A DNA stretch of 64,000 bases. It comes from Candidatus Vogelbacteria bacterium (GTDB taxonomy: Bacteria; Patescibacteriota; Minisyncoccia; Phycocordibacterales; XYD1-FULL-46-19). The notes under the pieces were generated by a model. That model was not told the DNA's origin. It worked only from the letters and a program-made list of their open reading frames with translations, and did no database searches. The position numbers and the translations under genes were made by a program. How positions within the stretch are numbered: the first letter of the stretch is position 1; each line of letters opens with the position of its first letter. Positions 35,011 to 59,440 of this stretch are shown piece by piece. The stretch is from assembly GCA_016188295.1 (NCBI GenBank), contig JACPIA010000003.1, positions 30-64,029 of the forward strand. The letters are read 5' to 3'.

Positions 35011-35036
35011 CATGTCAAGGCCTCGCCTTGACAATG
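35011..35036. repeat. REP palindrome (catgtcaaggcctcgccttgacaatg)
   Basis: Same family. Confidence 0.7.
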
Positions 35037-35073
35037 AGGGGAAACAAAAAACCTCCTTGGTTGGAGGAGGGTT

Positions 35074-35574: not shown

Positions 35575-35704
35575 AAATTTAAATTAATTATAATCTCGTT
35601 TTCGACGTTAGTTCTATTATACAGCACACCCGTAAAATGAGTACATCACGGGTCAAGCCCCTGTGGATATCCCGTAAAGCGCAGACGCCACGGGACTAGG
35701 TACC

Positions 35705-36913: not shown

Positions 36914-36916
36914 AAA

Positions 36917-37981
36917 TTACAATAGCCGTTCTAAACTTTTAGGATTGAGAGAAAAGCGGTAAGCGTTATCGGCCGTAATCTCGCCACGGCGGGCCAAGTC
37001 AGCTAACGAGTGATTAAGATCGACCATTCCCTGCTCGGCACCAGTCTCAATGACCACATCAATCTCCGGCGTCCGACCCTCCCGGATTAAGTTAGCGATG
37101 GCATTATTATTGATTAACAATTCATAAGCTGGAATTAAACCACCCGATACTCGAGGGAGCAAGCGTTGGGAAAAGATGCCTAATAAGCTGTCAGCCAGTT
37201 GGACTCGAATTTGGCGTTGCTCATTGCCGGGAAAAGAATCAATAATCCGATCAATGGTTTGCGAGGCGCTGTTAGTGTGGAGAGTAGAAAGAATTAAGTG
37301 ACCGGTCTCGGCGGCCGTGACGGCAGTACTAATGGTTTCCGGCTCGCGCATCTCGCCGATCATGGCCACATTAACGTCTTGACGAAACATCGCCTTTAAA
37401 GCGGTATGGAAATCGGCGGTATCAAAACGAACTTCGCGCTGATCAATAATTGATTTGTCGCTGGTGAACAAATATTCAACCGGATCCTCGACGGTAATGA
37501 TGTGCTCACTTCGCTCGTGATTGATGTGATCCACCATTGAAGCCAAGGTGGTTGATTTACCATGACCAACTGGACCCACTACTAAAAAGAAACCTTGTTC
37601 CCGTTTACAAAAATCAAGCAAGGACGGCGGTAAATTTAGCTCGGCTAAAGTCCGGATCGTCCGCGGAATCAGGCGAAAAGCCAAGCCGACTGTCCCTTTT
37701 TGATAAAACGCATTACCGCGAAAACGGACCGCCCCGTCGGGGCTGTAAGAAAAGTCGATGTCATGATTATCTAAAAAGAGTTTTTTATTTTTTTCATTTA
37801 ACACCGTCATGGCAAAACCCATGGTGTCCTCGGGAGTAAGGATTGGCTTTTTAACCACCGGAATCAAGTCGCCCGAAACCCGGATGGTGGGATGGCGTCC
37901 GGCCGTTAAGTGAAGATCGGAGGCCCCTTCGCGCGCCACCACCAAAATCAATTCATCCAACTCTTTTTTGTAATCAGTCAT
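36917..37981 (-). CDS. pilT: twitching motility retraction ATPase PilT
   Basis: Walker A GPVGHGKST, Asp/His boxes and the PilT-type N-terminus. Confidence 0.85.
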   Translation of the reverse strand: MTDYKKELDELILVVAREGASDLHLTAGRHPTIRVSGDLIPVVKKPILTPEDTMGFAMTVLNEKNKKLFLDNHDIDFSYSPDGAVRFRGNAFYQKGTVGLAFRLIPRTIRTLAELNLPPSLLDFCKREQGFFLVVGPVGHGKSTTLASMVDHINHERSEHIITVEDPVEYLFTSDKSIIDQREVRFDTADFHTALKAMFRQDVNVAMIGEMREPETISTAVTAAETGHLILSTLHTNSASQTIDRIIDSFPGNEQRQIRVQLADSLLGIFSQRLLPRVSGGLIPAYELLINNNAIANLIREGRTPEIDVVIETGAEQGMVDLNHSLADLARRGEITADNAYRFSLNPKSLERLL

Positions 37982-37993
37982 AAGTTAAAAATA

Positions 37994-38392
37994 TTAAAAA
38001 CTAATTCCTTTTTGTTTGGCAATATCTATTGTTTTAGCAACCACCTCTGATGGTGTCGCAGTAGCCTTGATGATGTAACCATCAGCACCGACCGCCAAAC
38101 CTTTGTCGACATCATCTTTTTGGCCCAAGTTGGAAAGGATAATAATGGCGGTGTTAGCTAGATCAGCCCGCGCTTTTAATTTTTTAACTAATTCCAAACC
38201 ATCCATCCCCGGCATGACAATATCGACCAAACAGACCATTGGCACAAAACCGCTCTCAATGCGAGTTAAAGCCTCCTCGGCACCACTGACGGTCTCCACC
38301 GTAAAATCATGCTCGCTAAATTTAATCGAGTACATGTCGAGCAAAAACTTGTCATCGTCAACGACTAGCACTTTAAGACCATTTCCAGACAT
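37994..38392 (-). CDS. response regulator receiver domain protein (CheY-like, PilH/PilG-like position)
   Basis: 132-aa receiver domain (KVLVVDDD...phospho-acceptor D in CLVDIVMPGMDG...K in YIIK), embedded between pilT and pilB. Confidence 0.75.
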   Translation of the reverse strand: MSGNGLKVLVVDDDKFLLDMYSIKFSEHDFTVETVSGAEEALTRIESGFVPMVCLVDIVMPGMDGLELVKKLKARADLANTAIIILSNLGQKDDVDKGLAVGADGYIIKATATPSEVVAKTIDIAKQKGISF

Positions 38393-38405
38393 AGAGTTAT
38401 TTTAA

Positions 38406-39983
38406 TTATAGCTTATTAACCTCCTCAAAGGCAATCTGCCCCGCAAACGCCTTTTGCATCGCATCCTCCCGGATCGACAGAAAACCCTTGGAGCGCAGTA
38501 ATTTGTAAATATCGGTTTGACCGCCGTTTTTTAGAACAATCTTTTCTAAATCCTTATCCATTTCAAAAAACTCGGCCGCCGCCGTCCGACCGCGGGTACC
38601 GGAGGGACAAGAAGAACTGGACACCGATTTGTACACTTCAGCCGGAATAGCTAATTTAGAGCGATGCTCGGGCGACAAATCCGCCAACTCTTTATCGAGC
38701 ATCATTTTAAGTGAGTCAGCGAGTGGCTCTTTTTGTTTGGAGTCGCAGAGTATTGGCACTAAGCGCTGACTGATCACTAAATTGAGAGTTGGCGGGATCA
38801 AATACGGCTCGACTCCCATATCAATTAAACGCGGAATCGCGCCTGCGGCGGTATTAGTGTGCAGAGTGGACAACACCAAGTGACCAGTTAAAGCCGCCTG
38901 AATGGCAAGTTTAGCCGTCTCCCGATCACGGATCTCGCCAACCATAATAATGTCCGGATCTTGGCGCAAGATCGAACGGAGACCATTAGCAAAAGTGTAA
39001 TTAATTTCCGGCTGGACTTGAGATTGATTAACCCCAGTAATATCGTACTCAATTGGGTCCTCTAGACTGACAGTGTTGAATTTTTCTTTATCAATCTCAT
39101 TTAACATTGAGTAAAGGGTAGTGGTTTTACCCGAGCCAGTCGGGCCAGTGAGTAAGATCATCCCATACGGCCGCTTGAGCGCATTGCGAATCGAGTTAAC
39201 TACCCGCTCGTTTAGGCCTAAAGTCTCTAGTGTCACAAATTTATGATCAGGATCAAGAATACGGATCACCACCTTCTCGCCAAAAAAGGTTGGCAAGGTG
39301 GAAACCCGGAAGTCGATCTGCTTGCCTTCGACTTTAGCCGAAAAACGACCATCTTGCGGTTTACGTTTTTCATCTAACTTCATATTCGTCAAAATTTTGA
39401 CTCGAGAAACCACGGCATTATGAACGGTTACGGGCAACAATAAACTGGTATACAAGACGCCATCGACGCGGAAACGGACGCGCACCTTACCCGCCATCGG
39501 CTCAATATGAATGTCTGAGGCATTACCGCTAATCGCGTGCTGGAGAATAACACCGACAATTTTGGTTACCGGCGCTTCCTCCACTAAGCTGGCATCCTCG
39601 GCCTTACGTTTAGCGGCCGGCGAGCCAATCACCGTCTCGCTACCCGTACCACTGTCGCCGGAAGTAGTTTTATATTCTTCAAGGGCCTCATCGACCGCGC
39701 CGGAAATACTCTTATAACCCTCAAAGACTTTAGTAAACTGCTCGGTCGTGATTTTAAAAATCTTAAACGGCATATCACTCTTGGAAGCGATAAATTGGAG
39801 CGCATCGCGCGCCTCCATATTGTCGGGATCAACCATTCCCACCTCCAAAACACCATCTTTAACCGCCATCGGCACTAATTGATAGTACGAAGCGGCATCC
39901 TCTGGGACATAGCGCAAGACCGCCGCGGCGATATGTTTGTCGCCCAGCTCTTTAGTTGGGACTGTTAAATCATCAGTACTCAT
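38406..39983 (-). CDS. pilB: type IV pilus assembly ATPase PilB (GspE family)
   Basis: N-terminal GspII_E-like domain, Walker A GPTGSGKTTT and a tetracysteine motif, 525 aa. Confidence 0.85.
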   Translation of the reverse strand: MSTDDLTVPTKELGDKHIAAAVLRYVPEDAASYYQLVPMAVKDGVLEVGMVDPDNMEARDALQFIASKSDMPFKIFKITTEQFTKVFEGYKSISGAVDEALEEYKTTSGDSGTGSETVIGSPAAKRKAEDASLVEEAPVTKIVGVILQHAISGNASDIHIEPMAGKVRVRFRVDGVLYTSLLLPVTVHNAVVSRVKILTNMKLDEKRKPQDGRFSAKVEGKQIDFRVSTLPTFFGEKVVIRILDPDHKFVTLETLGLNERVVNSIRNALKRPYGMILLTGPTGSGKTTTLYSMLNEIDKEKFNTVSLEDPIEYDITGVNQSQVQPEINYTFANGLRSILRQDPDIIMVGEIRDRETAKLAIQAALTGHLVLSTLHTNTAAGAIPRLIDMGVEPYLIPPTLNLVISQRLVPILCDSKQKEPLADSLKMMLDKELADLSPEHRSKLAIPAEVYKSVSSSSCPSGTRGRTAAAEFFEMDKDLEKIVLKNGGQTDIYKLLRSKGFLSIREDAMQKAFAGQIAFEEVNKL

Positions 39984-39995
39984 AAAGACAACTAC

Positions 39996-40364
39996 TTAGG
40001 GCCTAATACCAGAGCTGATGACCTGACCCGGTAAAGGAGCAAAGGGATTAGTTCGACCAGCTGGCACGGCCGGTAATGGTTGATGGAAATCAGAGAAACC
40101 ATTAGCAAACACCGGGTCATCAAAAATATTGATCCCTAAATTGGCTGATTGCAGGGCCGCTAACAGCTCCACAAATTGTTTATCAGTCTCCAAGTCGGCA
40201 TCTGACTCACTGTTATCGGTAACGACCAATGTTCCATCAGCAGTGGCTGTGCTGGTAGTCAAGCCAATACCAGCCTGTTCCTCGTCACCTAAATACCAAT
40301 AGCCAAGCACTAAAGCACTAGCAAACAGAAGGATAATAATCGTGTTAATTAAAGTCTTAGACAT
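39996..40364 (-). CDS. hypothetical membrane-anchored protein (PilP-like position)
   Basis: N-terminal TM and a Pro-rich C-terminus. Operon context only. Confidence 0.35.
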   Translation of the reverse strand: MSKTLINTIIILLFASALVLGYWYLGDEEQAGIGLTTSTATADGTLVVTDNSESDADLETDKQFVELLAALQSANLGINIFDDPVFANGFSDFHQPLPAVPAGRTNPFAPLPGQVISSGIRP

Positions 40365-40365
40365 A

Positions 40366-40950
40366 CTAATTTTTTAACCAATAGGTTTTAAAGTTGATAG
40401 TGTATTGATAAGTGTCTTTATCATCAACTGAAGTAAAACTGAGAGCAGTTAAATCAATCACGCGTAGACTTTTAGCTAAATCACTGATAAATCTTTGAAA
40501 TTGAGTGTAGTTACCAGAGACGGTGGCCGAGAAACTCTCTGTCCCTAAACTACCGATCACAATGGTACTAGTTGAGACGGCAGTGTTAGTAGTGCGCGTG
40601 ATTACCGGCGTCTCCACTTTAATATTTTTGACACTTAAACCGTTTTGTTTGGCAATCGTCGCCACATCTACCACTACCTCAATGGGATCCAGACTATCCG
40701 GCAAAAAACTATCAAGTTTGGCTAAATCTTGAGGTGTTAGTGCGCCAAAGCGTTCGTTCAGCTTTTCTTCCAAAGCGGTTAAAGCATCGGCTCGCTCAAG
40801 GGCTTGGTTTAAAGAGTCACGCTCGGCTCGTTGAGCCAAGATCCCCGGCCGACTAGCATCGGCCGTATTATAAATCAACGGACTGATCCCGCCCCAAAAC
40901 AGAGCAATGATTAAGAACAGGATAATAATAGGGGCAATGATTCTGGTCAT
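40366..40950 (-). CDS. PilO-like pilus assembly protein
   Basis: N-terminal TM plus coiled-coil. Called from operon position and size. Confidence 0.45.
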   Translation of the reverse strand: MTRIIAPIIILFLIIALFWGGISPLIYNTADASRPGILAQRAERDSLNQALERADALTALEEKLNERFGALTPQDLAKLDSFLPDSLDPIEVVVDVATIAKQNGLSVKNIKVETPVITRTTNTAVSTSTIVIGSLGTESFSATVSGNYTQFQRFISDLAKSLRVIDLTALSFTSVDDKDTYQYTINFKTYWLKN

Positions 40951-41618
40951 ATTGATATCGTGGAGCTGGCCGTAGAACTGGCGATAATCGCCGGTATTGT
41001 GACCGCATGATTAGTTAAGAAAGCGCGATAAGATAATAATCGCGGATCAAGGGAAAGAGCTAATTTAAAATTGACATTATTCTGATTATCTAAAACGAAA
41101 TCAGAAAAGGTAAAGGAGCGTACCCGTTTGTCGGTGCGGAAGTTGGCCGCCTGGATGGCAATATCCTCATAACGCGCCGCTACCCCCTCTAAAGCCAGAC
41201 CTTCATCAGTCTGAGTTAATTTTTTATAACGAATAGTTGAAAGGGTGGATTGATTAAAAAAATCTAATAACGGCAACATCGTAATGTGGTTATCCACAAG
41301 CGTGCGCGCCGTTTTAAATTTAACATCTAATCGTTGATACTCTTGCAACGTACTTTTATTAAGCTCCTCTTCTTTGCGATCTAAAGTCGCTTTTAAACCA
41401 CAACCCACCGGTACGCCCTCGGCCGTAACTTGGCAAGCACGATTAATCTGCCCATCCAAATACCAGTGATAAGCGTAAAGTATGGCTGTAAACAAGGCGA
41501 CAATGATTAAAATAATTACCGCCAAGGAAGATAAAAAACCAAAACGCTCTGGCGCTTGGATGGGCGCTTGCCGCAATGGTTGTTTAGGAATGAATGATGT
41601 TTGAATAGATGGCTCCAT
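40947..41618 (-). CDS. PilN-like pilus assembly protein
   Basis: N-terminal TM and operon position after pilM. Confidence 0.45.
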   Translation of the reverse strand: MEPSIQTSFIPKQPLRQAPIQAPERFGFLSSLAVIILIIVALFTAILYAYHWYLDGQINRACQVTAEGVPVGCGLKATLDRKEEELNKSTLQEYQRLDVKFKTARTLVDNHITMLPLLDFFNQSTLSTIRYKKLTQTDEGLALEGVAARYEDIAIQAANFRTDKRVRSFTFSDFVLDNQNNVNFKLALSLDPRLLSYRAFLTNHAVTIPAIIASSTASSTISI

Positions 41619-41667
41619 AAAAACGAACTACTATCACTTACATTGTAACGCGAAATTAAACCGCGTG

Positions 41668-42798
41668 CTAGTGATTATTAAGCACCCGCAAGGCCACACC
41701 GAGGGCAATCGCGAATGACGGCCCCGCTTCGGCCAACACATCAGTTAAAAATGGTGGTGCTTCCACACGATCAAACGGCTCACCTAAAACAATTGGCGTC
41801 TCGACTAAGCCTTTAGCCACCTCAGGCAAACCGGCCAACAATGAGCCACCACCGATCAAAATAATTTTATTGACTGCTCGACTGTATTTACGCTGATAAT
41901 CTAAAATCACTTGATTCACTTCGGAAAAAATAAATTCGATCATCGGATTGACCGTTGGCGCAATATGCTCCTCACCCACCTGCTCCATTAAACCAACTTT
42001 GCGTTTAATCTCCTCGGCTTTAGCAAACGAGACTCCGAGCGAGCGTGACACCGCGGTAGTAATATCTTGGGCGCCTTTATTAATCGTGTGCGAAACTCGG
42101 ACAATGCCGTAGTCAACAATCGTCATTTTAGCGGTACCGGCCCCAAGATCTAAAATGGCCGTCGCCGACAGTTCGGTCCCTAAACTGGAGCGGATAGCGC
42201 CAAACGTCTCAATCTCAAAAAAGCGCGTATCTAATTTAGCGGCTTGAGCAATCGCTTGGTATTGTTTTAAAGTGTCATTATGAATAGCGGCCACCAACAC
42301 TTCCACCATTTTGGTTTTAAGGGTATTCTCACGCTCGCGGGTTGGGATCGTAATTTCCTCATCGATTTTTTTAGGAATCACCCACCAATCAAGCGCCACT
42401 TCACTAATCGGTACCGGCACATATTTGCGAGCCTCAAGCGATACTACTTGAGGCAATTCTTTGTTACTGACCTCGGGCACCTCCATCGTCACCAACAAAC
42501 TAGAGCGAAGTGGAATCGCAATCGCTCCGGTGCGAGAAGTCACATTAGCCTCACGGAATAAGTCATCCAGCAAAGTGACAATCTGCTCGGTGTTGAGATT
42601 GATCGCCTGCCCCACTGCCAAGTCACCATAAGGACCGGTAGCAATCTCACCATAAGTCTCCAAAATTAAACGGCCCTGTTCGGTTTTGATTTGCACCACT
42701 TTGACGGAGGAAAAACCAATGTCCACACCAATAACACTCCCTGGTGTTTGCCACAGTTTTGGTTTTTTAATCCAACCTAATACCCGCGACCAATCCAT
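41668..42798 (-). CDS. pilM: type IV pilus assembly protein PilM (actin-like ATPase)
   Basis: FtsA/actin-like fold pattern (GVDIGFSSVKVVQI...DLGAGTAKMTIV). Confidence 0.75.
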   Translation of the reverse strand: MDWSRVLGWIKKPKLWQTPGSVIGVDIGFSSVKVVQIKTEQGRLILETYGEIATGPYGDLAVGQAINLNTEQIVTLLDDLFREANVTSRTGAIAIPLRSSLLVTMEVPEVSNKELPQVVSLEARKYVPVPISEVALDWWVIPKKIDEEITIPTRERENTLKTKMVEVLVAAIHNDTLKQYQAIAQAAKLDTRFFEIETFGAIRSSLGTELSATAILDLGAGTAKMTIVDYGIVRVSHTINKGAQDITTAVSRSLGVSFAKAEEIKRKVGLMEQVGEEHIAPTVNPMIEFIFSEVNQVILDYQRKYSRAVNKIILIGGGSLLAGLPEVAKGLVETPIVLGEPFDRVEAPPFLTDVLAEAGPSFAIALGVALRVLNNH

Positions 42799-43741: not shown

Positions 43742-43821
43742 GTTTATTTAAATTAACGATTATTAAGACTACTTTTTCTCCTGCCAGCCATTATACCCTA
43801 TGTAGCCCTAGAGAGCAATCT

Positions 43822-43925
43822 GCGGTGTATTCTTAAAATAGCTCGAACGGAATTCTGTTCTCGCCCGCCTGCGGCGGGCTCGGGTCGGGAGGGCAAAAAA
43901 TCCGTGCGGCTTTGCCGCAAAAATT
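43822..43925. repeat. GC-rich inverted repeat A-prime (inverted copy of 44839-44942, about 99% identity)
   Basis: gcggtgtattcttaaaatagctcgaacggaattctgttctcgcccgcctgcggcgggctcgggtcgggagggcaaaaaatccgtgcggctttgccgcaaaaatt. Confidence 0.85.
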
Positions 43926-43964
43926 AACAATTTCAAGTTTTTCTTTGGCGGCAATTTAAAAATT

Positions 43965-44729
43965 TTAGAGACAGGGAACTGAAGAAAAATCCTGGTGACC
44001 TCGATTAAGTTGGCATCGTTGAGTAACTGTCGCATTTCCTAGTGTCCAAACATTATTGTTGTAATACGCAGATGCAACTTTTTTCTGTGCACTAACAGAA
44101 TCGTCTCGCATTCCTTCGTATATTGCAGTTACAGCGTATTGACCATTGTTGTTTTGGACACTGACGGTAACTGATCCACAAGTGTCAGGCGTACAACCGC
44201 CCCAATTCCGCAATACAAGAGTCCGAGCTTGTTCCTGAGTAAAAGTGGGTGTAGCAGATGTGATTGTAAAGTAATTATCAGAAACATCTTCAAGTTCTTG
44301 ACCAACAGTGACCGCTAATTTGTATCGTCCTGCTGGAATATCTACTGGAATGGTAACTGTTTTTACGCCATTATTTGGAGCATCAGTCCAACTGCTAACT
44401 AAATCTCCGTTGTTCAAATGTTTTCCGTCAGCTGTGTCCAAATGAATCCAAATACCAGCGGTAGAGGCAACATTTTTGGTTTGCCATTTGATTGTTATTT
44501 GATTTCCAGTCGTGTATGTTTCCCCGCCGTTCGGGGAAAGTAGAGTAATCGAACCATTGGCAAATTGCAGACTACCATCTTTCCCTCCCGCGCCACCAGT
44601 TGTCTTAATGCCTGGCGTAGGCGACAGCTGTTGATTGGACTTCAACATAAAATATCCGGCTATCCCCAAAACAACAACGACTAACACAATGAGCGCTATG
44701 ATTATATTTGCAAAACCTTTTTGATTCAT
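43965..44729 (-). CDS. hypothetical exported/membrane-anchored protein
   Basis: 254 aa with an N-terminal TM (IIIALIVLVVVVLGIAGYF) and a Gly/Thr/Asn-rich extracellular region. Bracketed by inverted repeats A-prime and A. Confidence 0.55.
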   Translation of the reverse strand: MNQKGFANIIIALIVLVVVVLGIAGYFMLKSNQQLSPTPGIKTTGGAGGKDGSLQFANGSITLLSPNGGETYTTGNQITIKWQTKNVASTAGIWIHLDTADGKHLNNGDLVSSWTDAPNNGVKTVTIPVDIPAGRYKLAVTVGQELEDVSDNYFTITSATPTFTQEQARTLVLRNWGGCTPDTCGSVTVSVQNNNGQYAVTAIYEGMRDDSVSAQKKVASAYYNNNVWTLGNATVTQRCQLNRGHQDFSSVPCL

Positions 44730-44838
44730 ATTTATAAATTTATTAGTTAATAATTTTTATGACTTTATGAAAAAATTTCTTTTGCCCTTCCAAAATATGG
44801 TCCGAGCCGATTTGTTTTCAGGTTCTTTGGCAGCTTGG

Positions 44839-44942
44839 AATTTTTGCGGCAAAGCCGCACGGATTTTTTTCCCTCCCGACCCGAGCCCGCCGCAGGCGGG
44901 CGAGAACAGAATTCCGTTCGAGCTATTTTAAGAATACACCGC
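44839..44942. repeat. GC-rich inverted repeat A (central copy)
   Basis: Reverse complement of 43822-43925. Contains sub-hairpins tgcggcaaagccgca and gcccgccgcaggcgggc. Confidence 0.85.
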
Positions 44943-45043
44943 AATTCAGGATTTCGCAAGTGGAAAGATGATGCCGAGCGGCGCGAAACGCGCCGCTCGG
45001 CTAGAATTTGAAAGGGCTTTTCGGGCGAAAAGGAAAAGGATTT
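44939..45043. repeat. GC-rich inverted repeat B (central copy, contiguous with A)
   Basis: Reverse complement of 46462-46566. Contains the perfect hairpin gccgagcggcgcg aaa cgcgccgctcggc. Confidence 0.85.
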
Positions 45044-45093
45044 ATCAATGAAGGGCAAAAGAAAATTTTTATCAATTTTAATCAAACAAAAAC

Positions 45094-46617
45094 ATGAAAT
45101 ACATAATCTATGCGAGAAAATCTACCGAGAGCGAGGAACGACAAATCATGTCTATTGAATCCCAGCTTTCTGAATTAAAAGAATTTGCCGCCAAAGAAAA
45201 ACTTGAAATTGTTGCTTCGCTTTGCGAAGCCCAAACTGCCAAAGAACCTGGGCGAATTAAATTCGCTGAAATGTTGTCATTTCTGGAGAGTGGAAAAGCA
45301 GACGGAATTCTCTCTTGGAATCCAGATCGTCTCGCCCGAAATTCCATAGACGGAGGACAGATTATCTATATGCTGGACACAGGAAAAATTAAGGACTTAA
45401 AATTTCCGACTCATTGGTTTGAAAATACACCGCAAGGAAAATTTATGCTGAACATTGCATTTGGGCAAAGCAAATACTATGTAGATAATCTAAGTGAAAA
45501 TATCAAACGCGGACATAGAGCAAAATTAAGAAAAAGCATTTGGCCCGGCTTTGCCCCGCTTGGCTACACCAACAATCATAAAACGCGAGATATTGATGTT
45601 GACCACGAAAAAGCTCCGTTCATACGAAAGGGTTTTGAATTGTATGCGACTGGAAAATATACGCTAAAACAGATTGCAAAAATTCTCAAAGATTTAGGAT
45701 TGCGAAGCTACAAAGGAAATGTCCTTTCAGTTTCCTGTGTCCAGCGATTTTTGCAGAATCGATTTTACTACGGACTGTTTGAATTCAAGGGCGAGACGCA
45801 TCAAGGAACGCACGAGCCAGTTATCACGAAGAAACTTTTTGATAAATGTCAGGAAGTTATGAAGGATCGCGGACATATTAAAACGAGAAAAGCAGAGAAA
45901 ACTTTTCCATTTCGCGGATTACTCGCTTGCGGAGAATGTAGTTGCGCTATTACTGCCGAGACACAAAAAGGTCATAACTATTATCGTTGCACGAAAAAGA
46001 AAATCGCTTGTTCGCAAAAATATGTCCGCGAAGAATTACTAACGGAACAAGTAAAAAGTTTTCTTCAAAAAGTTTCTTTATCGAGCCAAGACACCGAAAA
46101 AGTTTTGCGTGAGCTGGACAAAGACGAGCAGAAAGCAAAAGCGAGTAGTTTCGTAATCGTTCAAAATCTGAAGAGTGAGTTATCCGACATCGGCACAAAA
46201 TTGAATAAATTACTTTCTGCGTATCTCGACGAGATAATTACTTCGGAAGAGTATGCCACGCAAAAACAAAAAATGCTCTCACTCAAAATAGAGTGTGCGG
46301 AAGAAATCAGGGAAATTGAAGATGGAATTGTGTCTTGGCTCGAACCGGCTCGTGCGTGGATTAAATCCTTAAATCAAGCAGAGAAACTGCTTTCCTCTGG
46401 GGATAAGTCGGAAATGACAACATTTCTAAAACAAAACGGCTCGAACCATATTTTGATCGATAAATCCTTTTCCTTTTCGCCCGAAAAGCCCTTTCAAATT
46501 CTAGCCGAGCGGCGCGTTTCGCGCCGCTCGGCATCATCTTTCCACTTGCGAAATCCTGAATTGCGGAAGGGGAGGGATTCGAACCCTCGAGAGACTTTTA
46601 CATCCCTACCTCGTTAG
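45094..46617 (+). CDS. large serine recombinase (resolvase/invertase N-domain plus recombinase domain plus zinc ribbon plus coiled-coil)
   Basis: N-terminal IIYARKSTESEERQIMSIESQ catalytic-Ser region, recombinase domain and zinc ribbon CGECSC...YYRCTKKKIAC, 507 aa. The last ~50 codons read through repeat B-prime into the tRNA-Ser flank. The true C-terminus is probably near 46460. Confidence 0.8.
   Translation: MKYIIYARKSTESEERQIMSIESQLSELKEFAAKEKLEIVASLCEAQTAKEPGRIKFAEMLSFLESGKADGILSWNPDRLARNSIDGGQIIYMLDTGKIKDLKFPTHWFENTPQGKFMLNIAFGQSKYYVDNLSENIKRGHRAKLRKSIWPGFAPLGYTNNHKTRDIDVDHEKAPFIRKGFELYATGKYTLKQIAKILKDLGLRSYKGNVLSVSCVQRFLQNRFYYGLFEFKGETHQGTHEPVITKKLFDKCQEVMKDRGHIKTRKAEKTFPFRGLLACGECSCAITAETQKGHNYYRCTKKKIACSQKYVREELLTEQVKSFLQKVSLSSQDTEKVLRELDKDEQKAKASSFVIVQNLKSELSDIGTKLNKLLSAYLDEIITSEEYATQKQKMLSLKIECAEEIREIEDGIVSWLEPARAWIKSLNQAEKLLSSGDKSEMTTFLKQNGSNHILIDKSFSFSPEKPFQILAERRVSRRSASSFHLRNPELRKGRDSNPRETFTSLPR
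46462..46566. repeat. GC-rich inverted repeat B-prime, abutting and overlapping by about 3 nt the 3-prime end of tRNA-Ser(GCT)
   Basis: aaatccttttccttttcgcccgaaaagccctttcaaattctagccgagcggcgcgtttcgcgccgctcggcatcatctttccacttgcgaaatcctgaattgcgg. Confidence 0.85.
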
Positions 46618-46652
46618 CAGTGAGGCGCTTTCGACCACTCAGCCACCCCTCC
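46564..46652 (-). tRNA. tRNA-Ser (anticodon GCT)
   Basis: Reverse complement GGAGGGGTGGCTGAGTGGTCGAAAGCG...ctGCTaa...long variable arm...GGTTCGAATCCCTCCCCTTCCG. Confidence 0.8.
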
Positions 46653-46663: not shown

Positions 46664-46915
46664 CTACTTTATACTCTCTATCAACAAAAACTTCAACCTT
46701 TCTTTTCCTTTGCCAGTCTTGAGAAACAATTCCTCTCTACGTGCATCTTTTTCTGATACAAAAGCTTGATAATAAACCAATTTCCACGGGCCATTATTAC
46801 TGGTAAATTTACTATTACCTAACGAGTGTTCTTTAACTCGTCGCTTTAAATCAGCAGTAAAACCTTTGTATAATTTATTATTTCTCAAGCTTCTTAAAAC
46901 GTAGACATAATACAT
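46664..46915 (-). CDS. GIY-YIG nuclease superfamily protein (UPF0213-like)
   Basis: MYYVYVLRSLRNNKLYKGFTADLKRRVKEH is a GIY-YIG motif. The start is trimmed to the internal Met. The track ORF is 46664-46993. Confidence 0.7.
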   Translation of the reverse strand: MYYVYVLRSLRNNKLYKGFTADLKRRVKEHSLGNSKFTSNNGPWKLVYYQAFVSEKDARREELFLKTGKGKERLKFLLIESIK

Positions 46916-47044
46916 AAATTGTCCACTCTCAGCCCTAGGCTGATCGGCCTTGGGCCGAAGCCACCCCTCCGTATTACTGCAACACACCGGCAATTTAACA
47001 CATCTAGAGCAGTAAGGCTAGCTTAAAATTTAACACAAAATTAA

Positions 47045-47072
47045 CCCGGCGATGTGTACCCGCATCGCCGGG
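47045..47072 (-). terminator. candidate intrinsic terminator (minus strand)
   Basis: CCCGGCGATGtgtacccgCATCGCCGGG followed on the minus strand by TTAATTTTGTGTT. Confidence 0.4.
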
Positions 47073-47074
47073 TC

Positions 47075-47332
47075 TTAGATTGAGAATTCTTGGTTGTTTT
47101 CAAAACGGTTAGCAAAATCAGTTGCGCCACCATTTCGAATAAAATGCATCACAGCCTCGTTATCGCTTGGCGGATGCTGGAGAGCAATACCTGCAAACCA
47201 GCGATTCTCCGGCCCGAGCGCTTCCCGCTTCTGTACCTCTAAGAATTGTCTCAACCCTTCTGGTGTCCTACGATCAATTGGAGTTGACATGACTCCCCTC
47301 CTTTGTGACCGTTCCTGTCTCCAACATACCAT
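47075..47332 (-). CDS. hypothetical small protein (GC-rich)
   Basis: 85-aa ORF with GC content above the local background. The true start is possibly MSTPIDRR. No known domain. Confidence 0.3.
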   Translation of the reverse strand: MVCWRQERSQRRGVMSTPIDRRTPEGLRQFLEVQKREALGPENRWFAGIALQHPPSDNEAVMHFIRNGGATDFANRFENNQEFSI

Positions 47333-47424
47333 TTCTTAATTATTTGCAAACCAACTAATCCACACCTCCATTTTAAATCAATAATCATTTATTTTATCTC
47401 TTATTGCCCCTTCTTCATCCCTTT

Positions 47425-47469
47425 CAATTGTACCATCTTCCAGTGATCACGTTTACTTGGTACAATTGA
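47425..47469. repeat. P3 palindromic direct repeat, left copy (caATTGTACCAtcttccagtgatcacgtttactTGGTACAATtga)
   Basis: 10-bp perfect inverted arms AATTGTACCA/TGGTACAATT around a 22-nt core containing GTGATCAC. A second copy lies at 48070-48113. Confidence 0.8.
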
Positions 47470-47475
47470 TCTAAA

Positions 47476-48051
47476 ATGAAACATAAAACCAATAACATTA
47501 AAAGGGTTTATAGCCCCATGAAGCAAAAAATAATACTTTTACTTCACGCCGGCATTGCCTTATCCTTAACTCGTACCGCTAAAAAACAAATCTATCTTTT
47601 AAAAACCACACATCGAAAATGGCAAAAAATCGAAAAAAGAAAGCTTTATCGCTTAATTCGTGAATTTCACCATGAGCGACTAGTTGATTGGCGAGAGTAT
47701 AATGATGGTAGTATTAGCATCACCTTATCTCAAGCTGGCAAAAAACTAGCGCAAAAATTTGATTTTGATAATATGACTCTTCCGCAATCAGGACGATGGG
47801 ATAGGAAATGGCGAGTAGTGATGTACGATATTCCTCAACCAAAACAGGCTACTCGTGATGCTTTAAGGTCAAAATTAAAAGAATTAGGTTTTAAAGAATT
47901 CCAAAAATCCGTTTTCATTTACCCCTACTCTTGTTGCGATGAAATCAATTTTATTATTGAATTTTTTGATATTAGACCATATGTCACCTTTGGTGAGTTA
48001 GTTAATCCAACCAATGAAGCTTCATTAAAAATGAGTTTTGGTGTTAAATAA
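47476..48051 (+). CDS. wHTH plus Cas2-like (Cas2/VapD-fold) domain protein, paralog A (PaaX-like architecture)
   Basis: C-terminal RWRVVMYDIPQPKQATRDALRSKLKELGFKEFQKSVFIYPY matches the Cas2 core pattern (hhhYDh..kr..kv.k.L...G.r.Q.SVF). The N-terminal roughly 100 aa is a basic helix-rich domain. About 45% identical to 58811-59374. Confidence 0.55.
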   Translation: MKHKTNNIKRVYSPMKQKIILLLHAGIALSLTRTAKKQIYLLKTTHRKWQKIEKRKLYRLIREFHHERLVDWREYNDGSISITLSQAGKKLAQKFDFDNMTLPQSGRWDRKWRVVMYDIPQPKQATRDALRSKLKELGFKEFQKSVFIYPYSCCDEINFIIEFFDIRPYVTFGELVNPTNEASLKMSFGVK

Positions 48052-48069
48052 ATTTTTAAAAATAAATCT

Positions 48070-48113
48070 AATTGTACCATCTTCCAGTGATCACGTCTAC
48101 TTGGTACAAGTTG
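48070..48113. repeat. P3 palindromic direct repeat, right copy
   Basis: 41/44 identical to 47425-47469. Confidence 0.8.
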
Positions 48114-48188
48114 TGATTTTATAGGATTCAATTTATCTAGCGACCTAACTAATTTGGTGTTTATTTAAATTAGTACTATAATTTTAAG

Positions 48189-48545
48189 ATGAACAGGTTT
48201 GGGTTGATTGGATTAATAGTGGTAATTATTGTGGTCGGCTTAATTGCTTGGCAATATGAAATCCCGTCCAGCCAAACACCGACTATCAGTGATCTTAATC
48301 AAAACAAAGTGGAGCCTGGCACTATTAGAGTGGAGGGTTATGTGGTTAAAAAATCTATTAAGAGTGGTAACATTATCATTTCCCAAACTAATGAATCCCT
48401 CACTGATTACACCCAATTAACTGATGATGATTTGATTATTTACCTCGATCATCCCGATCGCTATAATCTGGGCCAAAAATATACTTTCGAGTTAATGTTG
48501 GAAAGTTACGACAGCCAAGGCCACCCAATCTATAGTTTGAAATAG
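48189..48545 (+). CDS. hypothetical membrane-anchored protein
   Basis: 118 aa with an N-terminal TM. Precedes the GspE-like gene. Confidence 0.45.
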   Translation: MNRFGLIGLIVVIIVVGLIAWQYEIPSSQTPTISDLNQNKVEPGTIRVEGYVVKKSIKSGNIIISQTNESLTDYTQLTDDDLIIYLDHPDRYNLGQKYTFELMLESYDSQGHPIYSLK

Positions 48546-48553
48546 ACTGCCCT

Positions 48554-49768
48554 ATGGCCGCCGAGGCAATTACACAAGAATTAGCGCGAGGCGGATCTGT
48601 CTCTATTATTAATTTAGTTAATTGTTTGATCAGCCAAGCGGCGGAAGTGGGTGCCTCTGATTTACATCTCGACCCATCAGAGTCAGGACTGGAAGCGCGT
48701 CTGCGTATTGATGGCGTGCTGGAGGATTTATGTCACATCCCTAAAGAAATTAAGTCTGAAGTAGTCTCCCGGATTAAAGTGGTCGCCGGTCTCCGGACTG
48801 ATGAGCACCAGATGCCACAGGATGGCCGCTTCCGCCACCTTTTCCCTAACCAACACTTTGTCGACATCCGCGTCTCGATTGCCCCAACGTACCATGGTGA
48901 GAATGTGGTTTTGCGCCTACTCTCCGACAAGGCTGAGGATTTTAGTTTAGGGATGTTGGGGTTTAGTGAGAGTGATCAAGTAAAAATTGGCCAGGCAATT
49001 AAAAAATCAAGTGGGATGATTTTAGTCACCGGGCCCACTGGTTCTGGCAAAACCACTACTCTATACACTTTAATTAAAATGCTTAATTCTAAAAGCGTTT
49101 CGATTATTACCGTCGAGGATCCAATTGAGTATGCCATTTGTGGCATTAAACAAATTCAAGTTAACCCACGCGCCGGCCTCACTTTTGTCACCGGCCTCCG
49201 GACCATTTTACGCCAGGATCCTAATATTATTATGGTCGGCGAAATTCGCGATGTCGAGACCGCCAGCATGGCCGTCAACACCGCTTTAACCGGCCACTTA
49301 TTACTTTCGACCTTACACACCAACGATGCCGCCACTACCCTACCGCGCTTGTTGGATATGAAGATTGAATCTTTTTTAGTCGCCTCCACTGTTAGTGTCG
49401 CCATCGGCCAACGCTTAGTCCGCCGGATTTGTAGTAAATGTAAAGAGAAGATAATAGTCACCCCAGCTCTAGCTCAAAGTTTGGCCGCTATTTGTTTAGC
49501 TCAACCGATATTAAGTGGCGAGATTTTTTACCGAGGTAAGGGTTGTGAGTATTGCCACCACAGTGGTTACACTGGTCGACTAGTAATTAACGAGGTCTTA
49601 GTCGCTACTCCTAATTTACGCGAAGCGATTTTAAACAAAGCCTCGGCTAGCCGATTAAAACAAATTGCAATCACCGAAGGAATGACCACTATGATCGATG
49701 ACGGTTTTATTAAAGCACGCTCCGGCCAAACTACCATTGAGGAAGTCTTACGGGTGATTCATGAATAG
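48554..49768 (+). CDS. GspE/PilB-family secretion ATPase (short form, ComGA-like)
   Basis: Walker A GPTGSGKTTT, Asp/His boxes and a tetracysteine CSKC...CEYCHHSG, 404 aa. Lacks the long N-terminal domain. Confidence 0.8.
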   Translation: MAAEAITQELARGGSVSIINLVNCLISQAAEVGASDLHLDPSESGLEARLRIDGVLEDLCHIPKEIKSEVVSRIKVVAGLRTDEHQMPQDGRFRHLFPNQHFVDIRVSIAPTYHGENVVLRLLSDKAEDFSLGMLGFSESDQVKIGQAIKKSSGMILVTGPTGSGKTTTLYTLIKMLNSKSVSIITVEDPIEYAICGIKQIQVNPRAGLTFVTGLRTILRQDPNIIMVGEIRDVETASMAVNTALTGHLLLSTLHTNDAATTLPRLLDMKIESFLVASTVSVAIGQRLVRRICSKCKEKIIVTPALAQSLAAICLAQPILSGEIFYRGKGCEYCHHSGYTGRLVINEVLVATPNLREAILNKASASRLKQIAITEGMTTMIDDGFIKARSGQTTIEEVLRVIHE

Positions 49769-50837
49769 ATTATTTCAACATCACACCAAGTGGTCGATTA
49801 AAGAACAATCGTTTTTTGCCAAACGATTATCGTTTTTAATGAGCGCCGGTTTGCCACTTTTAGATAGCCTCCAACTTTTGCATCGACAAACCAATGTCCG
49901 TTCGCGCTCAAATAAAGTGCTGGATACTTTAATTGATGATATTGCCAGTGGTTATTATTTGTCTAAAAGTTTAGCCCGCTTCCCCACTATTTTTGGCCAG
50001 TTTGCGGTTAATATTGTCAAAATCGGCGAGGAGAGTGGTATCTTAAGCCAAAACCTCAATTACCTCGCCGCCGAATTAAAAAAGAAGCAAATTCTCCGCC
50101 GTAAAATAATCAGCGCTTTAATTTACCCAATAATTATTACTTTGGCCACTTTAGGCATCACCGCTTTTTTGATGATTTACCTTTTTCCTAAAATTATGCC
50201 GATTTTTACCAGCCTCCGTGTCGACTTACCATTAAGCACTAAAATAGTGATTGCGATTAGTAGTTTTTTGCATCACTGGGGACTAGCTTCTTTAATCGGT
50301 TTAAGCTCTAGTTTGATTATTTTAGCAACCACCATTAAAAAGAATCGACCAATCAGACGCTGGTATGAAAAATTATTATTAAAATTACCGGTACTGGGGA
50401 CCATGATTAAAAATTACAATTTAGCCAATGCCAGTCGGACCTTGAGCTTATTACTCCAAAGCAATATGACTTTAAATGGCGCCTTAGCGATCACCGCCGA
50501 AACTAGTGAAAATCTAATCTTTAAAAACACTTGGCAAACTTGGGCAGAGATCGCTAATCGGGGCGAGTGCCTGGATTTTGCTTTAAATAAAGAAGGAACC
50601 AAGGTCTTGCCCGACATTTTTAAACAATTAGTCTCGGTTGGTGAGGTCAGTGGCAACTTAGCCGACACTTTAATGTATTTATCCGAGCTTTACGAGCAAG
50701 AGCTGGATGATATTACCAAAGATTTATCAACGATGATTGAGCCGGCCTTAATGATTTTTATGGGCTTATTAATCGGCTTTATCGCCATTTCGATTATTAC
50801 TCCAATTTATAGTTTGACCCAAAATTTACATGGCTAA
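49761..50837 (+). CDS. GspF/PilC-family platform protein (ComGB-like)
   Basis: Duplicated GspF domain and 3 TM segments, 358 aa. Confidence 0.75.
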   Translation: MNRLFQHHTKWSIKEQSFFAKRLSFLMSAGLPLLDSLQLLHRQTNVRSRSNKVLDTLIDDIASGYYLSKSLARFPTIFGQFAVNIVKIGEESGILSQNLNYLAAELKKKQILRRKIISALIYPIIITLATLGITAFLMIYLFPKIMPIFTSLRVDLPLSTKIVIAISSFLHHWGLASLIGLSSSLIILATTIKKNRPIRRWYEKLLLKLPVLGTMIKNYNLANASRTLSLLLQSNMTLNGALAITAETSENLIFKNTWQTWAEIANRGECLDFALNKEGTKVLPDIFKQLVSVGEVSGNLADTLMYLSELYEQELDDITKDLSTMIEPALMIFMGLLIGFIAISIITPIYSLTQNLHG

Positions 50838-51309
50838 AACTGGACCTGCCCTGAGCTTGTCGAAGGGTTTTACTTTGATTGAAATTGTTTTGGCACTTGG
50901 TTTAATTGTCTTCGTCGCCGGTTTTGCTTTAACTATTGACTATCAGCGTTACCAAAAGCAGTCACTAAAGACCGAACAACAAACCATAATCACCCTATTA
51001 CAAACCGCTCGTTCCCAAGCTATTAATAATATTGGCCAATCTTCTCATGGCTTAGTAATTTATCCACCAGATGAACCGCAAAATTATGTTTTATTTACGG
51101 GGACAGATTACAGTACTAGTGACCCAACCAAAAATCAAATTATTGAGTCTGGTTATAACTGGGACTTAGCCTCTACCTCTTTAAGCCAGGTGATATTTAA
51201 TCAATTAAGTGGTGATGTAAATACGGCCGGAGAAATTATTTTAATCGATCCTGTTAGTAATAACACTAGCACTATTTCTGTAAATCATGAAGGAGCCATC
51301 AATTGGTAA
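50830..51309 (+). CDS. prepilin-type pseudopilin/pilin
   Basis: N-terminal [21 protein letters not shown]. Confidence 0.6.
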   Translation: MAKTGPALSLSKGFTLIEIVLALGLIVFVAGFALTIDYQRYQKQSLKTEQQTIITLLQTARSQAINNIGQSSHGLVIYPPDEPQNYVLFTGTDYSTSDPTKNQIIESGYNWDLASTSLSQVIFNQLSGDVNTAGEIILIDPVSNNTSTISVNHEGAINW

Positions 51310-52714
51310 TAATTGCGGTTTTAGTACTTTAGAGATAACGCTCGCCTTCGCGATTATGAGTCTCGCGCTTAGTGGTGTCGTTTTTGCTTTGTTTGGGACT
51401 AACTACTGGACCATTGCCGCCCAAAGGCACACCACTGCCATCACCGAAGCTGAAGCTAAGTTAGAAGCTTGGCACCACTTAACGCAAACTGATTTCCTCT
51501 CGGCCAGCTCGAGTGAAATTAGTGATCTCTCCCCCTGTATCAAAGAGGTCGCAGTAAAAATAAGCTGGCAAGTCACTCCTTATCCTACCAGCACTGTAAC
51601 TTTATTTAGTCTATTGACTAATCCTAGCGAGGCTAAAGCCTTGGGTGGTGATTGTTTATTCAACGAGCCTAGGGCTGATTGGTCTAATCCCATCTTAGCC
51701 TCGAGTACTACTTTTAGCTCTCGCCCCTTAGCGATTGACATTTTAAACGAAACTACTTATTTAGCCACTGATCAAAGTCCTTATTTTAAAATCATTACCG
51801 CAAGTGGTGAGCAAACTTTCGCAAATTACTTTCAGGTGGGCGATTTAATTAATGATTTGGATGTAGTTTATAATCCAGACACTCAAAAAACTTATGCTTA
51901 TGCCGCCATAGCCTCATCGACTAATCAATTCCAAATTATAGAGGTGACTGACCCACAAAATCCGGTTTTAATAGCCAGTCGATCGTTATATGGTGTCGAC
52001 CCCACCGGCACCGCCCCTGAAGGTTGGCGTTTAACTTATTATGACCACTTTATTTACTTAACTACCCGTTTTACCGCTGGTCCAGAATTCCACATCTTTG
52101 ACGTTACTGATAACACTAATCCATTTGAGATTAGTGTTGGTAGAAATTTAAACACCTCTGTTTATGATTTAGCAGTTAGAGATCAGACAATCAATGCGAC
52201 AACTTATCGCTTAGCTTATATGGCTACCACTCAAGACAGCCAGGAATTACAAATCTTAGATGTCACTGACCCCACTACAATCCAAACTTTACCTAGTCTA
52301 AATTTACCAGACAGCTCAGCTTGCGTGTCCAATGAGCCTGATACTAAGACGATTTTCATTGCTGGTTATACTGCCTATGTCGGTCGAGAGAATTTAACCA
52401 ATTGTGCCACTTTACCTGATTTATACTTAATTGATATTAGCAACCCCATCGCCACCACTAGTATTAAAGCAAGCGCCAATCTCGGTACTAGTGTCATTGG
52501 CCTTAAAGTCAGCGGACAAAATATTTTTGTTGCCACAACCAATATAACTAATCCGCCAGCCAGTAAACTCCTAGATCTTAATGGAAATTATCTTTATTTA
52601 GCCAAAGATAAAGCTAGATTGGTTGAGATTTGGCAACAAAACCAAACTGTTTTAACTAAAATCGGTACTTACACTGCCAGCCTCGAACCCTTACAACTAA
52701 TTACCTCTCCATGA
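51287..52714 (+). CDS. prepilin-like N-terminus plus large LVIVD-repeat (beta-propeller-like) domain protein
   Basis: N-terminal GFSTLEITLAFAIMSLAL and repeated motifs of type QIIEVTDPQNPVLIA / LQILDVTDPTTIQTL / LYLIDISNPIATT (LVIVD-like), 475 aa. Confidence 0.5.
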   Translation: MKEPSIGNNCGFSTLEITLAFAIMSLALSGVVFALFGTNYWTIAAQRHTTAITEAEAKLEAWHHLTQTDFLSASSSEISDLSPCIKEVAVKISWQVTPYPTSTVTLFSLLTNPSEAKALGGDCLFNEPRADWSNPILASSTTFSSRPLAIDILNETTYLATDQSPYFKIITASGEQTFANYFQVGDLINDLDVVYNPDTQKTYAYAAIASSTNQFQIIEVTDPQNPVLIASRSLYGVDPTGTAPEGWRLTYYDHFIYLTTRFTAGPEFHIFDVTDNTNPFEISVGRNLNTSVYDLAVRDQTINATTYRLAYMATTQDSQELQILDVTDPTTIQTLPSLNLPDSSACVSNEPDTKTIFIAGYTAYVGRENLTNCATLPDLYLIDISNPIATTSIKASANLGTSVIGLKVSGQNIFVATTNITNPPASKLLDLNGNYLYLAKDKARLVEIWQQNQTVLTKIGTYTASLEPLQLITSP

Positions 52715-53139
52715 CTAAACAAGGTTTTACTTTAATCGAAGTGATTATTTATATTGCCTTATTTGGCTTATTAATTGGTGGCGCTTTAGTCGCCACTTAC
52801 GAGATAATTTCGAGCGATAATCATCAACAATTAGCCATTATCACCGCTCAAGACAGTGCTTTCATTAAGGCTAAAATCACTTGGGTCTTAAGTGGTGCCA
52901 CTAATATTTATAGTACTGGTAATAGTTTAGTTATAGATAACCCGAGCCTGGGCCTAATCACCCTGGAGGAGGTAGACCATAACTTAACGATCAAACGTGG
53001 ATCAAACCCAGCCTTACCATTAAATAGTAGCTTATTGAAAATTACTGATGTTAATTTTATCGTCACCACCAGTAGTGTAACCACTAATTTAATAACCAAC
53101 CAAAAACCTTTTATTTTTATAAACTATTTACATTATTAG
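52711..53139 (+). CDS. prepilin-type pseudopilin
   Basis: N-terminal TKQGFTLIEVIIYIALFGLLIGG. Confidence 0.55.
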   Translation: MTKQGFTLIEVIIYIALFGLLIGGALVATYEIISSDNHQQLAIITAQDSAFIKAKITWVLSGATNIYSTGNSLVIDNPSLGLITLEEVDHNLTIKRGSNPALPLNSSLLKITDVNFIVTTSSVTTNLITNQKPFIFINYLHY

Positions 53140-58753: not shown

Positions 58754-58797
58754 ATTATTCCTCCCAAAAATACGCTATCGCGTATTTTTTGGTATAA
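58754..58797. repeat. P2 palindromic element, copy 2 (overlaps the -35/-10 region of the downstream gene)
   Basis: ATTATTCCTCCCAAAAATACGCtatcGCGTATTTTTGGTATAAT with 12-bp arms CCAAAAATACGC/GCGTATTTTTGG. TATAAT at 58792-58797 sits 13 nt before ATG 58811. Confidence 0.8.
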
Positions 58798-58810
58798 TCA
58801 TATTTATATT

Positions 58811-59397: not shown

Positions 59398-59440
59398 ATT
59401 ATTCCATTTTATACGCGATAGCGTATTTTTGGGAGGAATC
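59398..59440. repeat. P2 palindromic element, copy 3 (inverted relative to copy 2)
   Basis: Its reverse complement GATTCCTCCCAAAAATACGCTATCGCGTATAAAATGGAATAAT shares a 28-bp identical core with copy 2. Confidence 0.8.

Follow-up and report, generated by a model that had tools for sequence, protein, structure and literature searches.

A PaaX-related winged-helix and Cas2-like protein of Patescibacteria encoded between two copies of a palindrome, its putative operator

Introduction

Why does the gene of a predicted winged-helix protein lie between two near-identical copies of a long palindrome? The question is raised by gene 47476-48051 in a 64,000-nucleotide stretch (called the window here) of a metagenome-assembled genome of a Candidatus Vogelbacteria bacterium (Patescibacteria/CPR). 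A preliminary description of this DNA proposed that the gene product and a paralog encoded in the same window each recognise their own flanking repeats, either for autoregulation or as a cognate-end mobile unit. Gene regulation in CPR bacteria is essentially uncharted, and few recognisable regulators are encoded in their genomes. No description of PaaX-like proteins in CPR/Patescibacteria, or of a gene bracketed by its own palindromes, was found in the literature. Here we report the computational analysis of the repeats, the protein and its relatives.

Results

Two palindrome copies surround gene 47476-48051

The repeat pair, termed P3, consists of the 42-bp hyphenated palindrome AATTGTACCATCTTCCAGTGATCACGTTTACTTGGTACAATT and a second copy in direct orientation that is identical at 40/42 positions. 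A search of the window with AATTGTACCATCTTCCAGTGATCACGTTTACTTGGTACAATT returned these two matches only, and none was obtained in 100 dinucleotide-preserving shuffles. The copies differ by T47453 to C48097 in the core and T47466 to G48110 in the right arm. The features of the locus are:

47426-47467, no strand: P3-U, upstream palindrome copy and proposed operator, centre between 47446 and 47447, 29 nt before the ATG
47476-48051, + strand: mini-PaaX gene, 191 aa (open reading frame; Pfam PaaX_M; AlphaFold2 model and Foldseek)
48070-48111, no strand: P3-D, downstream palindrome copy, centre between 48090 and 48091, 40/42 against P3-U

P3-U ends 8 nt before the ATG at 47476, and P3-D starts 18 nt after the stop codon. 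The elements had earlier been given as ~44 bp long and 41/44 identical, with the left one ending 7 nt before the ATG; the repeat pair and its close spacing to the gene stand, with these slightly corrected figures. Perfect 10-bp arms, AATTGTACCA/TGGTACAATT, had been assigned to each element and were found in the left copy only. In the right copy, the right (distal) arm is TGGTACAAGT, a 9/10 match in which TACAAT has become TACAAG. The core sequence GTGATCAC is common to both copies, lying in the left one within an asymmetric 22-bp core. P3 lacks self-complementarity in its inner part, and predicted folding of P3-D is poor (-11.6 kcal/mol, z -2). An E-value-threshold search of Rfam over 46900-48700 gave no match. 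A loose metagenome pattern built on the P3 arms, TTGTACCA-N18-26-TGGTACAA, returned at least 120 stretches; none among those listed carried the P3 core or adjoined a mini-PaaX gene.

The protein is related to PaaX and to Cas2

Alignment with 34 homologues favoured the start at ATG 47476 over the NCBI start at Met14. The 191-residue product matched Pfam PF20803 (PaaX_M, "PaaX central Cas2-like domain") at E 9.5e-21 and 74.1 bits against a cut-off of 24. A fold search was needed because the PDB, searched by sequence with this protein, gave no significant match. With an AlphaFold2 model built from a 35-sequence alignment (mean pLDDT 80), the best solved-structure match in Foldseek was E. coli W PaaX (8a39, E 1.6e-6), followed by Rv0674 (3kfw) and then the Jannaschia PaaX-like protein 3l09. 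The C-terminal domain resembled Cas2 structures (5g4d, 2ivy, 3exc and others), and the N-terminal domain resembled MarR-type winged helices. The Pfam, AlphaFold2 and Foldseek results thus bear out the earlier assignment as a winged helix (wHTH) plus Cas2-like protein. On the model, the protein is a wHTH joined to a Cas2-like domain, the latter probably serving for dimerisation.

We call the protein mini-PaaX since it is related to PaaX and Cas2 and is a strict member of neither. Its score with the PaaX equivalog TIGR02277 was 28.4 bits against a cut-off of 264.55. Among Cas2 profiles, Pfam CRISPR_Cas2 scored 23.5, under the 23.8 cut-off, and TIGR01573 scored 25.0 against 24.5 with only 37 residues aligned; these matches are marginal and confined to beta1-alpha1. 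The Cas2 motifs YDI...QxSVF are kept in the mini-PaaX alignment, and D118, the equivalent of the Cas2 metal-binding Asp, is invariant in the 35 aligned sequences. E. coli PaaX has presumably lost these Cas2-type motifs. PaaX, which we take to be 316 aa long in E. coli (305 residues in the solved chain 8a39), has a C-terminal phenylacetyl-CoA effector domain, whereas mini-PaaX stops at residue 191, where that domain would begin, and Pfam detected no PaaX_C effector-binding domain in it. No Pfam match to Y1_Tnp (HUH Y1 transposase) and no transposase or recombinase fold was found. PADLOC and PHROGs returned partial Cas2 matches and one weak DNA-binding match only, with no defence-system context.

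A paralog and solo palindromes in the window

The second paralog, P1, and further palindromes of the same class are located as follows:

58811-59374, + strand: second mini-PaaX gene, product of 187 aa with 53% identity to the P3 protein, PaaX_M match at 3e-20
58757-58798, no strand: P1-U, the paralog's upstream palindrome, right arm TGGTATAAT, ATG 12 nt after the -10
59398-59439, no strand: P1-D, the paralog's downstream palindrome, best match to P1-U inverted (39/48), between convergent genes
27228-27269 (centre ~27248), no strand: solo third P1-type palindrome, intergenic, upstream of ORF 26451-27131 (- strand)
20873-20915 (centre ~20894), no strand: solo palindrome of the same class with different arms, 19/21 arm pairs, centre ACGA/CCGT (slash at the centre), upstream of a NUDIX-like ORF (- strand)

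Both paralogs therefore sit in repeat-bounded cassettes with different repeats (P3-U/P3-D and P1-U/P1-D), as had been proposed. A scan of the window for long palindromes with the class centre found four sites (P3-U, P1-U and the solos centred at 27248 and 20894) against 0.07 expected; P3-D and P1-D fell just under the arm-pairing threshold of that scan. Of the six palindromes of this class in the window, four flank the paralogs, and within 64 kb there are two copies of the P3 type and three of the P1 type. The P1 regulator may have a further target in the solo palindrome at 27228-27269, and the one at 20873-20915 presumably belongs to a third paralog encoded beyond the window. Intergenic solo sites of this kind are compatible with small regulons. 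Another palindrome family in the window, TGTCAAGGC-N3-GCCTTGACA, brackets unrelated genes.

The bracket is nearly universal in the family

We found 114 homologues of the P3 protein, all in Patescibacteria, and compared 80 loci with mini-PaaX relatives in GTDB species representatives, again all Patescibacteria. Among 50%-identity clusters, family size was 730 at E≤1e-30 and 3133 at E≤1e-10, and several mini-PaaX paralogs occur per genome. An unanchored search compared the two 250-nt flanks of each gene. The best ungapped match of upstream with downstream flank scored 15-48 in most loci; the null, in which the upstream region of one locus was paired with the downstream region of another, had its 99th percentile at 13.5. 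When anchored at the palindrome centre, the upstream (U) and downstream (D) copies were more than 29/48 identical in 71/81 loci (the two window paralogs included), 29/48 being the 99th percentile of the mismatched-control null. Palindrome pairs with a non-canonical CATG centre were present in two loci, L001 and L008. The bracket is thus nearly universal in the family and not a peculiarity of the window. The U and D centres are ~600-700 bp apart, which corresponds to the length of the gene.

At L010, each of two tandem paralogs has its own palindrome pair. Syntenic orthologues, such as the P1 locus and L021, which share an upstream Mur ligase, differ in their arms and keep the U/D match. The recent same-genome paralogs L002 and L005, 82% identical, have nearly the same palindrome. 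The gene was AT-richer than its flanks in 75/77 loci (GC 0.36 vs. 0.43), and its GC3 was 0.34 vs. 0.43 in the flanks (72/79 loci), a difference for which the autorepression model does not account.

Anatomy of the palindrome

The four arms of 67 loci were read outward from the centre, and agreement was scored among the four arms of one locus:

Positions 1-4 from the centre: T-C/A-G-Y, family-conserved, arm agreement 0.83-1.00
Positions 5-8: variable, arm agreement 0.58-0.66
Positions 9-12: A/T-rich, arm agreement 0.76-0.79
Positions 13-18 (outer box): locus-specific, arm agreement 0.76-0.84, expected 0.27-0.38
Position 24: no pattern, arm agreement at chance level

Centres seen at positions 1-4 include CGA/TCG, CTA/TAG and CGG/TCG, and that of P3 is TGA/TCA. 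The outer boxes are ~31 bp apart, centre to centre. Agreement that depends on position and stops at the palindrome edge points to a footprint-like functional constraint rather than to plain duplication or gene conversion.

Loci whose proteins differ more in the wHTH half also tended to differ more in the outer box (Mantel rho 0.107, p 0.008), a small effect that is confounded by phylogeny; for the Cas2-like half, rho was 0.015 (p 0.39). Residue-by-base mutual information, also phylogeny-confounded, gave signal throughout the protein, with the recognition helix not standing out.

The upstream copy overlaps the promoter

The right outer box of P3-U is an extended -10 element, TGGTACAAT (47458-47466, + strand), with the ATG 9 nt downstream. 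No Shine-Dalgarno sequence precedes ATG 47476, which implies a leaderless or near-leaderless mRNA. Because P3-U is symmetric, this extended -10 recurs in its left arm on the - strand, facing a small divergent ORF:

47075-47290, - strand: divergent small ORF, 71 aa, ATG at 47290, strong AGGAGG ribosome-binding site, canonical terminator at 47043-47074

As judged from the layout of the site, the leftward -10 in P3-U may place this ORF, which has no Pfam family match, under the same regulation. Across the family, sense-strand TAnnnT peaked at +15 from the U centre in 15/67 loci and at +34/+35 in 21/67 loci, so that the outer box corresponds in position to a -10 or to a -35. This is the layout expected for repression by promoter occlusion, and with the upstream copy overlapping promoter elements, autorepression is the best reading of its role.

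Autoregulation by a protein that would recognise its own flanks is the best supported account of the whole locus, and on balance we lean towards it. The part of the preliminary proposal in which each protein recognises its own flanks agrees with the paralog-specific palindromes, the bracket in 71/81 loci, a spacing like that of the PaaX operator and the promoter overlap, from which we infer binding and repression; the mobile-unit half of the proposal was not supported.

The downstream copy and alternative roles of the palindromes

Relative to U, 34 loci had a direct D copy and 24 an inverted one, and the two orientations tied in 13. Such mixed orientation is not what would be expected of att-like sites, of terminal inverted repeats or of an obligatory antisense promoter. 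A -10-like motif was found in 32% of sense-facing and 20% of outward-facing U arms, and in 23% of antisense-facing and 15% of outward-facing D arms. In P3-D, the gene-facing left arm retains TGGTACAAT on the - strand and the distal right arm is degraded to TACAAG. A general antisense promoter in D was rejected: both window paralogs keep a gene-facing extended -10, but the family-wide frequency is 23% and the orientation is mixed.

Arm positions that depart from Watson-Crick pairing were biased on the sense strand of D, with 88 G:T/T:G vs. 35 A:C/C:A (p 2e-6). The same test gave 47 vs. 52 in U copies, whatever the orientation of the upstream gene. Counted per locus, the D excess was 35 vs. 11, and slid-register controls gave ratios of 1.0-1.7. 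A G·U bias limited to D indicates either that D is selected to pair as sense RNA or that there is a strong transcription-linked mutation bias. D was ruled out as a canonical intrinsic terminator because its stems have no U-tract: the 8 nt after D stems contained a mean of 2.6 T, with five or more T in 12% only, and P3-D was not flagged in a terminator scan. We infer that D is a second cognate DNA site that doubles as the 3' hairpin of the transcript and insulates the gene.

The RNA-level G·U selection in D would also fit palindromes that are structural hairpins, unbound by protein, acting as insulator, terminator or in RNA stability, with the copies kept alike by gene conversion or repeated cassette duplication. 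The arms are long (~20 bp) and give good folds; at 51 arm positions the copies differ from each other yet each is symmetric; and the TGTCAAGGC-N3-GCCTTGACA palindromes bracket unrelated genes in the same window. However, the U copies have no RNA signature with either orientation of the upstream gene, a U-tract is absent after the stems, and the agreement between copies is position-dependent and ends exactly at the palindrome edge. The class is also tied to the mini-PaaX family (4/6 window palindromes flank the paralogs), has PaaX-operator geometry and places its outer box on a -10 or -35. We regard purely structural hairpins as unlikely.

Alternatively, D could serve the next transcription unit as its operator, in which case the regulator would control the downstream genes as well as itself. 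The neighbours of P3 are a GIY-YIG protein, small ORFs and pilus genes; those co-directional on its 3' side encode a small membrane protein and type IV pilus components (48189-53139, with PilB-like 48554-49768 and PilC-like 49761-50837). The downstream gene is co-directional in 53/77 loci, and a -10-like motif lies at +34 after some D copies. However, D was above the null in 83% of loci with a convergent next gene, as in the P1 paralog, vs. 89% with a co-directional one, and no neighbour gene family, recombinase-like genes included, was conserved across the 80 loci. Retention of D next to convergent genes, together with the absence of a conserved neighbour, indicates that D is not merely the operator of the next operon. 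In P3 itself, the distal -10 of P3-D is degraded and the copy lies ~80 bp upstream of a TATAAT (~48172) next to the 48189 start codon. An operator of the next unit is therefore a rather improbable role for D. Conserved synteny with pilus genes was considered and discarded, PilB being nearby in 2/80 loci only.

Beyond autorepression, the Cas2-like domain might itself act on a hairpin of the cognate palindrome, either by processing or binding the 3' hairpin of its own mRNA (post-transcriptional "retroregulation") or by nicking extruded DNA hairpins in the manner of a REP/RAYT-like selfish cassette. We consider such an activity speculative and give it a low probability. If it were real, a hairpin-acting wHTH-Cas2 module might link Cas2/VapD nucleases and PaaX regulators in evolutionary terms.

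A REP/RAYT-like selfish or mobile cassette, in which the wHTH would direct the protein to the palindromes and hairpin DNA or RNA would be cleaved by the Cas2-like domain so that the unit is moved or maintained, would fit the flanking cognate palindromes with occasional solo copies, the retained Cas2 signature with its invariant Asp118, the AT-richness of the gene relative to its neighbours (75/77 loci), the L002/L005 similarity that runs only from palindrome edge to palindrome edge, and the L022 cassette, which, together with three downstream palindromes, separates an intact ABC ATPase gene from a decayed 5' fragment of it. The cognate-end mobile unit of the preliminary description is nevertheless very unlikely, given orthologous cassettes in conserved flanks (L041/L047, L024/L037 and L043/L078), no near-identical copies within a genome (paralogs are 52-82% identical), 2-3 copies per palindrome type in 64 kb, a mixed U/D orientation (34 vs. 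24), no relatives in IMG/VR viral contigs, no transposase or recombinase fold and no conserved recombinase-like neighbour.

Discussion

In the autoregulatory unit that we favour, a mini-PaaX dimer would hold two DNA-reading heads about three helical turns apart, in a PaaX-like manner. It would bind the ~42-bp palindrome through the locus-specific outer boxes (positions 13-18) and the family-conserved centre CGA/TCG (TGA/TCA in P3). Binding at P3-U would shut off transcription of the gene itself, i.e., negative autoregulation, and could also affect the divergent small gene. P3-D would be a second cognate site, delimiting and insulating the unit at its 3' end by way of an RNA hairpin, a bound-protein roadblock or looping to the upstream site.

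The closest known system is PaaX, the repressor of phenylacetate catabolism and the best structural match. In both proteins the wHTH is N-terminal and the Cas2-like dimerisation domain comes after it. The published operator in E. coli reads TGATTC-N27-GAATCA, its half-sites being 33 bp apart between centres, and PaaX represses its own promoter too (PMC9493321). Inverted half-sites about three helical turns apart are common to both systems (~31 bp for the mini-PaaX boxes vs. 33 bp for PaaX), a likeness of geometry only. The described PaaX operator has no counterpart of the conserved CGATCG-like centre of the mini-PaaX family. PaaX is also associated with paa genes, whereas no paa genes are found near the P3 locus, and mini-PaaX has a second operator-like copy downstream of its gene.

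What appears to be new here, as read from sequence, is a repressor-operator pair of the PaaX type in which a two-copy bracket is conserved and the downstream copy would serve at both the DNA and RNA levels. A D copy that is operator-like in DNA yet carries an RNA-hairpin signature is unusual, and no earlier description of it was found in the literature searched. The interest of the locus comes mainly from its generality across an uncharacterised family of CPR regulators. If the members do carry their own binding site on both sides, regulator-operator pairs could be read from sequence in hundreds of uncultivated lineages, and regulons could be predicted by scanning genomes for solo copies. The mini-PaaX family would then offer a natural case for studying regulator-operator co-diversification.

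Other systems resemble the unit in part. The Cas2/VapD ferredoxin-fold nucleases share the fold of the C-terminal domain and the invariant Asp at the equivalent of the metal site. Cas2, however, is a stand-alone protein of ~90-110 aa encoded next to cas1 and a CRISPR array, whereas mini-PaaX is a 191-aa wHTH fusion without these: no cas1 was detected among the Pfam-scanned ORFs flanking both paralogs, and TRF found no CRISPR array in the window. The looping repressors of lac (O1/O2), gal (OE/OI) and deo also use two copies of an operator, at the promoter and downstream of it, separated by a few hundred bp. The mini-PaaX sites instead bracket the repressor's own gene throughout the family, and both looping and oligomerisation beyond a dimer are hypothetical. 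Site-specific recombination cassettes (att/TIR) have a fixed repeat orientation and a recombinase, and the mini-PaaX bracket has neither.

The REP/RAYT system (REPtron) also has a gene flanked by cognate palindromes that differ between paralogs, with solo copies elsewhere. RAYT proteins are HUH/Y1 transposases accompanied by hundreds of palindromes, whereas mini-PaaX has no such fold, a handful of palindrome copies and an overlap with the promoter. A likely true REP/RAYT example is present in the same window, at 34600-34992.

Base composition of mini-PaaX loci and local duplication or rearrangement at L022

When set against its 2.3-kb flanks, the mini-PaaX gene (encoding a wHTH plus Cas2-like protein) shows a consistent AT excess over its neighbours across the homologous loci L001-L080. 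GC content was 0.36 in the gene vs. 0.43 in the flanks (AT-richer in 75 of 77 loci), and GC3 was 0.34 vs. 0.43 (lower in 72/79). The P3 cassette of the window, i.e., one paralog with its two flanking palindromes, has 30-35% GC vs. 40-45% in the surroundings.

At L022, three extra copies of the cassette palindrome are found downstream within 3280-5800 (centres at about 4631, 4733, and 5003). On one side of the cassette and these copies is a decayed 5' fragment of an ABC-transporter ATPase gene (3280-3886), and on the other is an intact copy of that gene (from 5172); fragment and intact copy share 78% identity. The surroundings of the cassette have therefore been duplicated or rearranged locally.

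Possible leaderless or near-leaderless starts

Several window genes carry a good -10 box just 7-12 nt 5' of the ATG and lack a Shine-Dalgarno sequence, including both mini-PaaX paralogs and a small membrane protein at 48189. The close -10/ATG regions are:

47458-47478
58790-58813
about 48172-48191

Strong AGGAGG sites are present in neighbouring genes, e.g., the ORF starting at 47290. The short -10 to ATG distance and the missing Shine-Dalgarno sequence suggest that leaderless or near-leaderless mRNAs are made from the Vogelbacteria genome.

Other palindromes in the window

A solo palindrome of the P1/P3 class, with arms different from both, was detected upstream of a short minus-strand NUDIX-like ORF; its RNA fold is estimated at -29 kcal/mol, and no mini-PaaX gene is found near it.

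20873-20915, 42-bp near-perfect palindrome (19/21 arm pairs, centre ACGA|CCGT)

A distinct family, TGTCAAGGC-N3-GCCTTGACA, has six copies in the window. An IS200-like Y1 transposase ORF sits between two of these copies, the same layout as the REP/RAYT "REPtron", and two others bracket a methyladenine glycosylase gene (21126-21713).

34597-35036, palindrome region around the transposase ORF
34600-34992, minus strand, Y1 transposase ORF (Pfam Y1_Tnp, 3.7e-9)
21123-21147, 21732-21756, 33362-33386, and 35075-35099, related copies

Serine recombinase region and pilus clusters

Nested inverted repeats (∼105-114 nt, 98-99% identity) enclose a large serine recombinase ORF in region 43821-46652, and the last repeat arm adjoins a tRNA gene. 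Possible explanations for this arrangement are integration of an element, a segment capable of inversion, or an artefact of assembly.

43821-43925 with 44839-44943, inverted repeat pair
44939-45052 with 46453-46566, inverted repeat pair
45094-46617, recombinase ORF (Resolvase, Recombinase, and Zn-ribbon domains)
46563-46652, tRNA-Ser(GCT)
46664-46993, GIY-YIG ORF, next after the tRNA

Two separate type IV pilus/type II secretion-like clusters were also observed (33227-42798 and 48554-53139), with genes for PilB-like and PilC-like proteins, prepilin peptidase, and several N-methyl pseudopilins. The P3 cassette directly precedes the start of one cluster.
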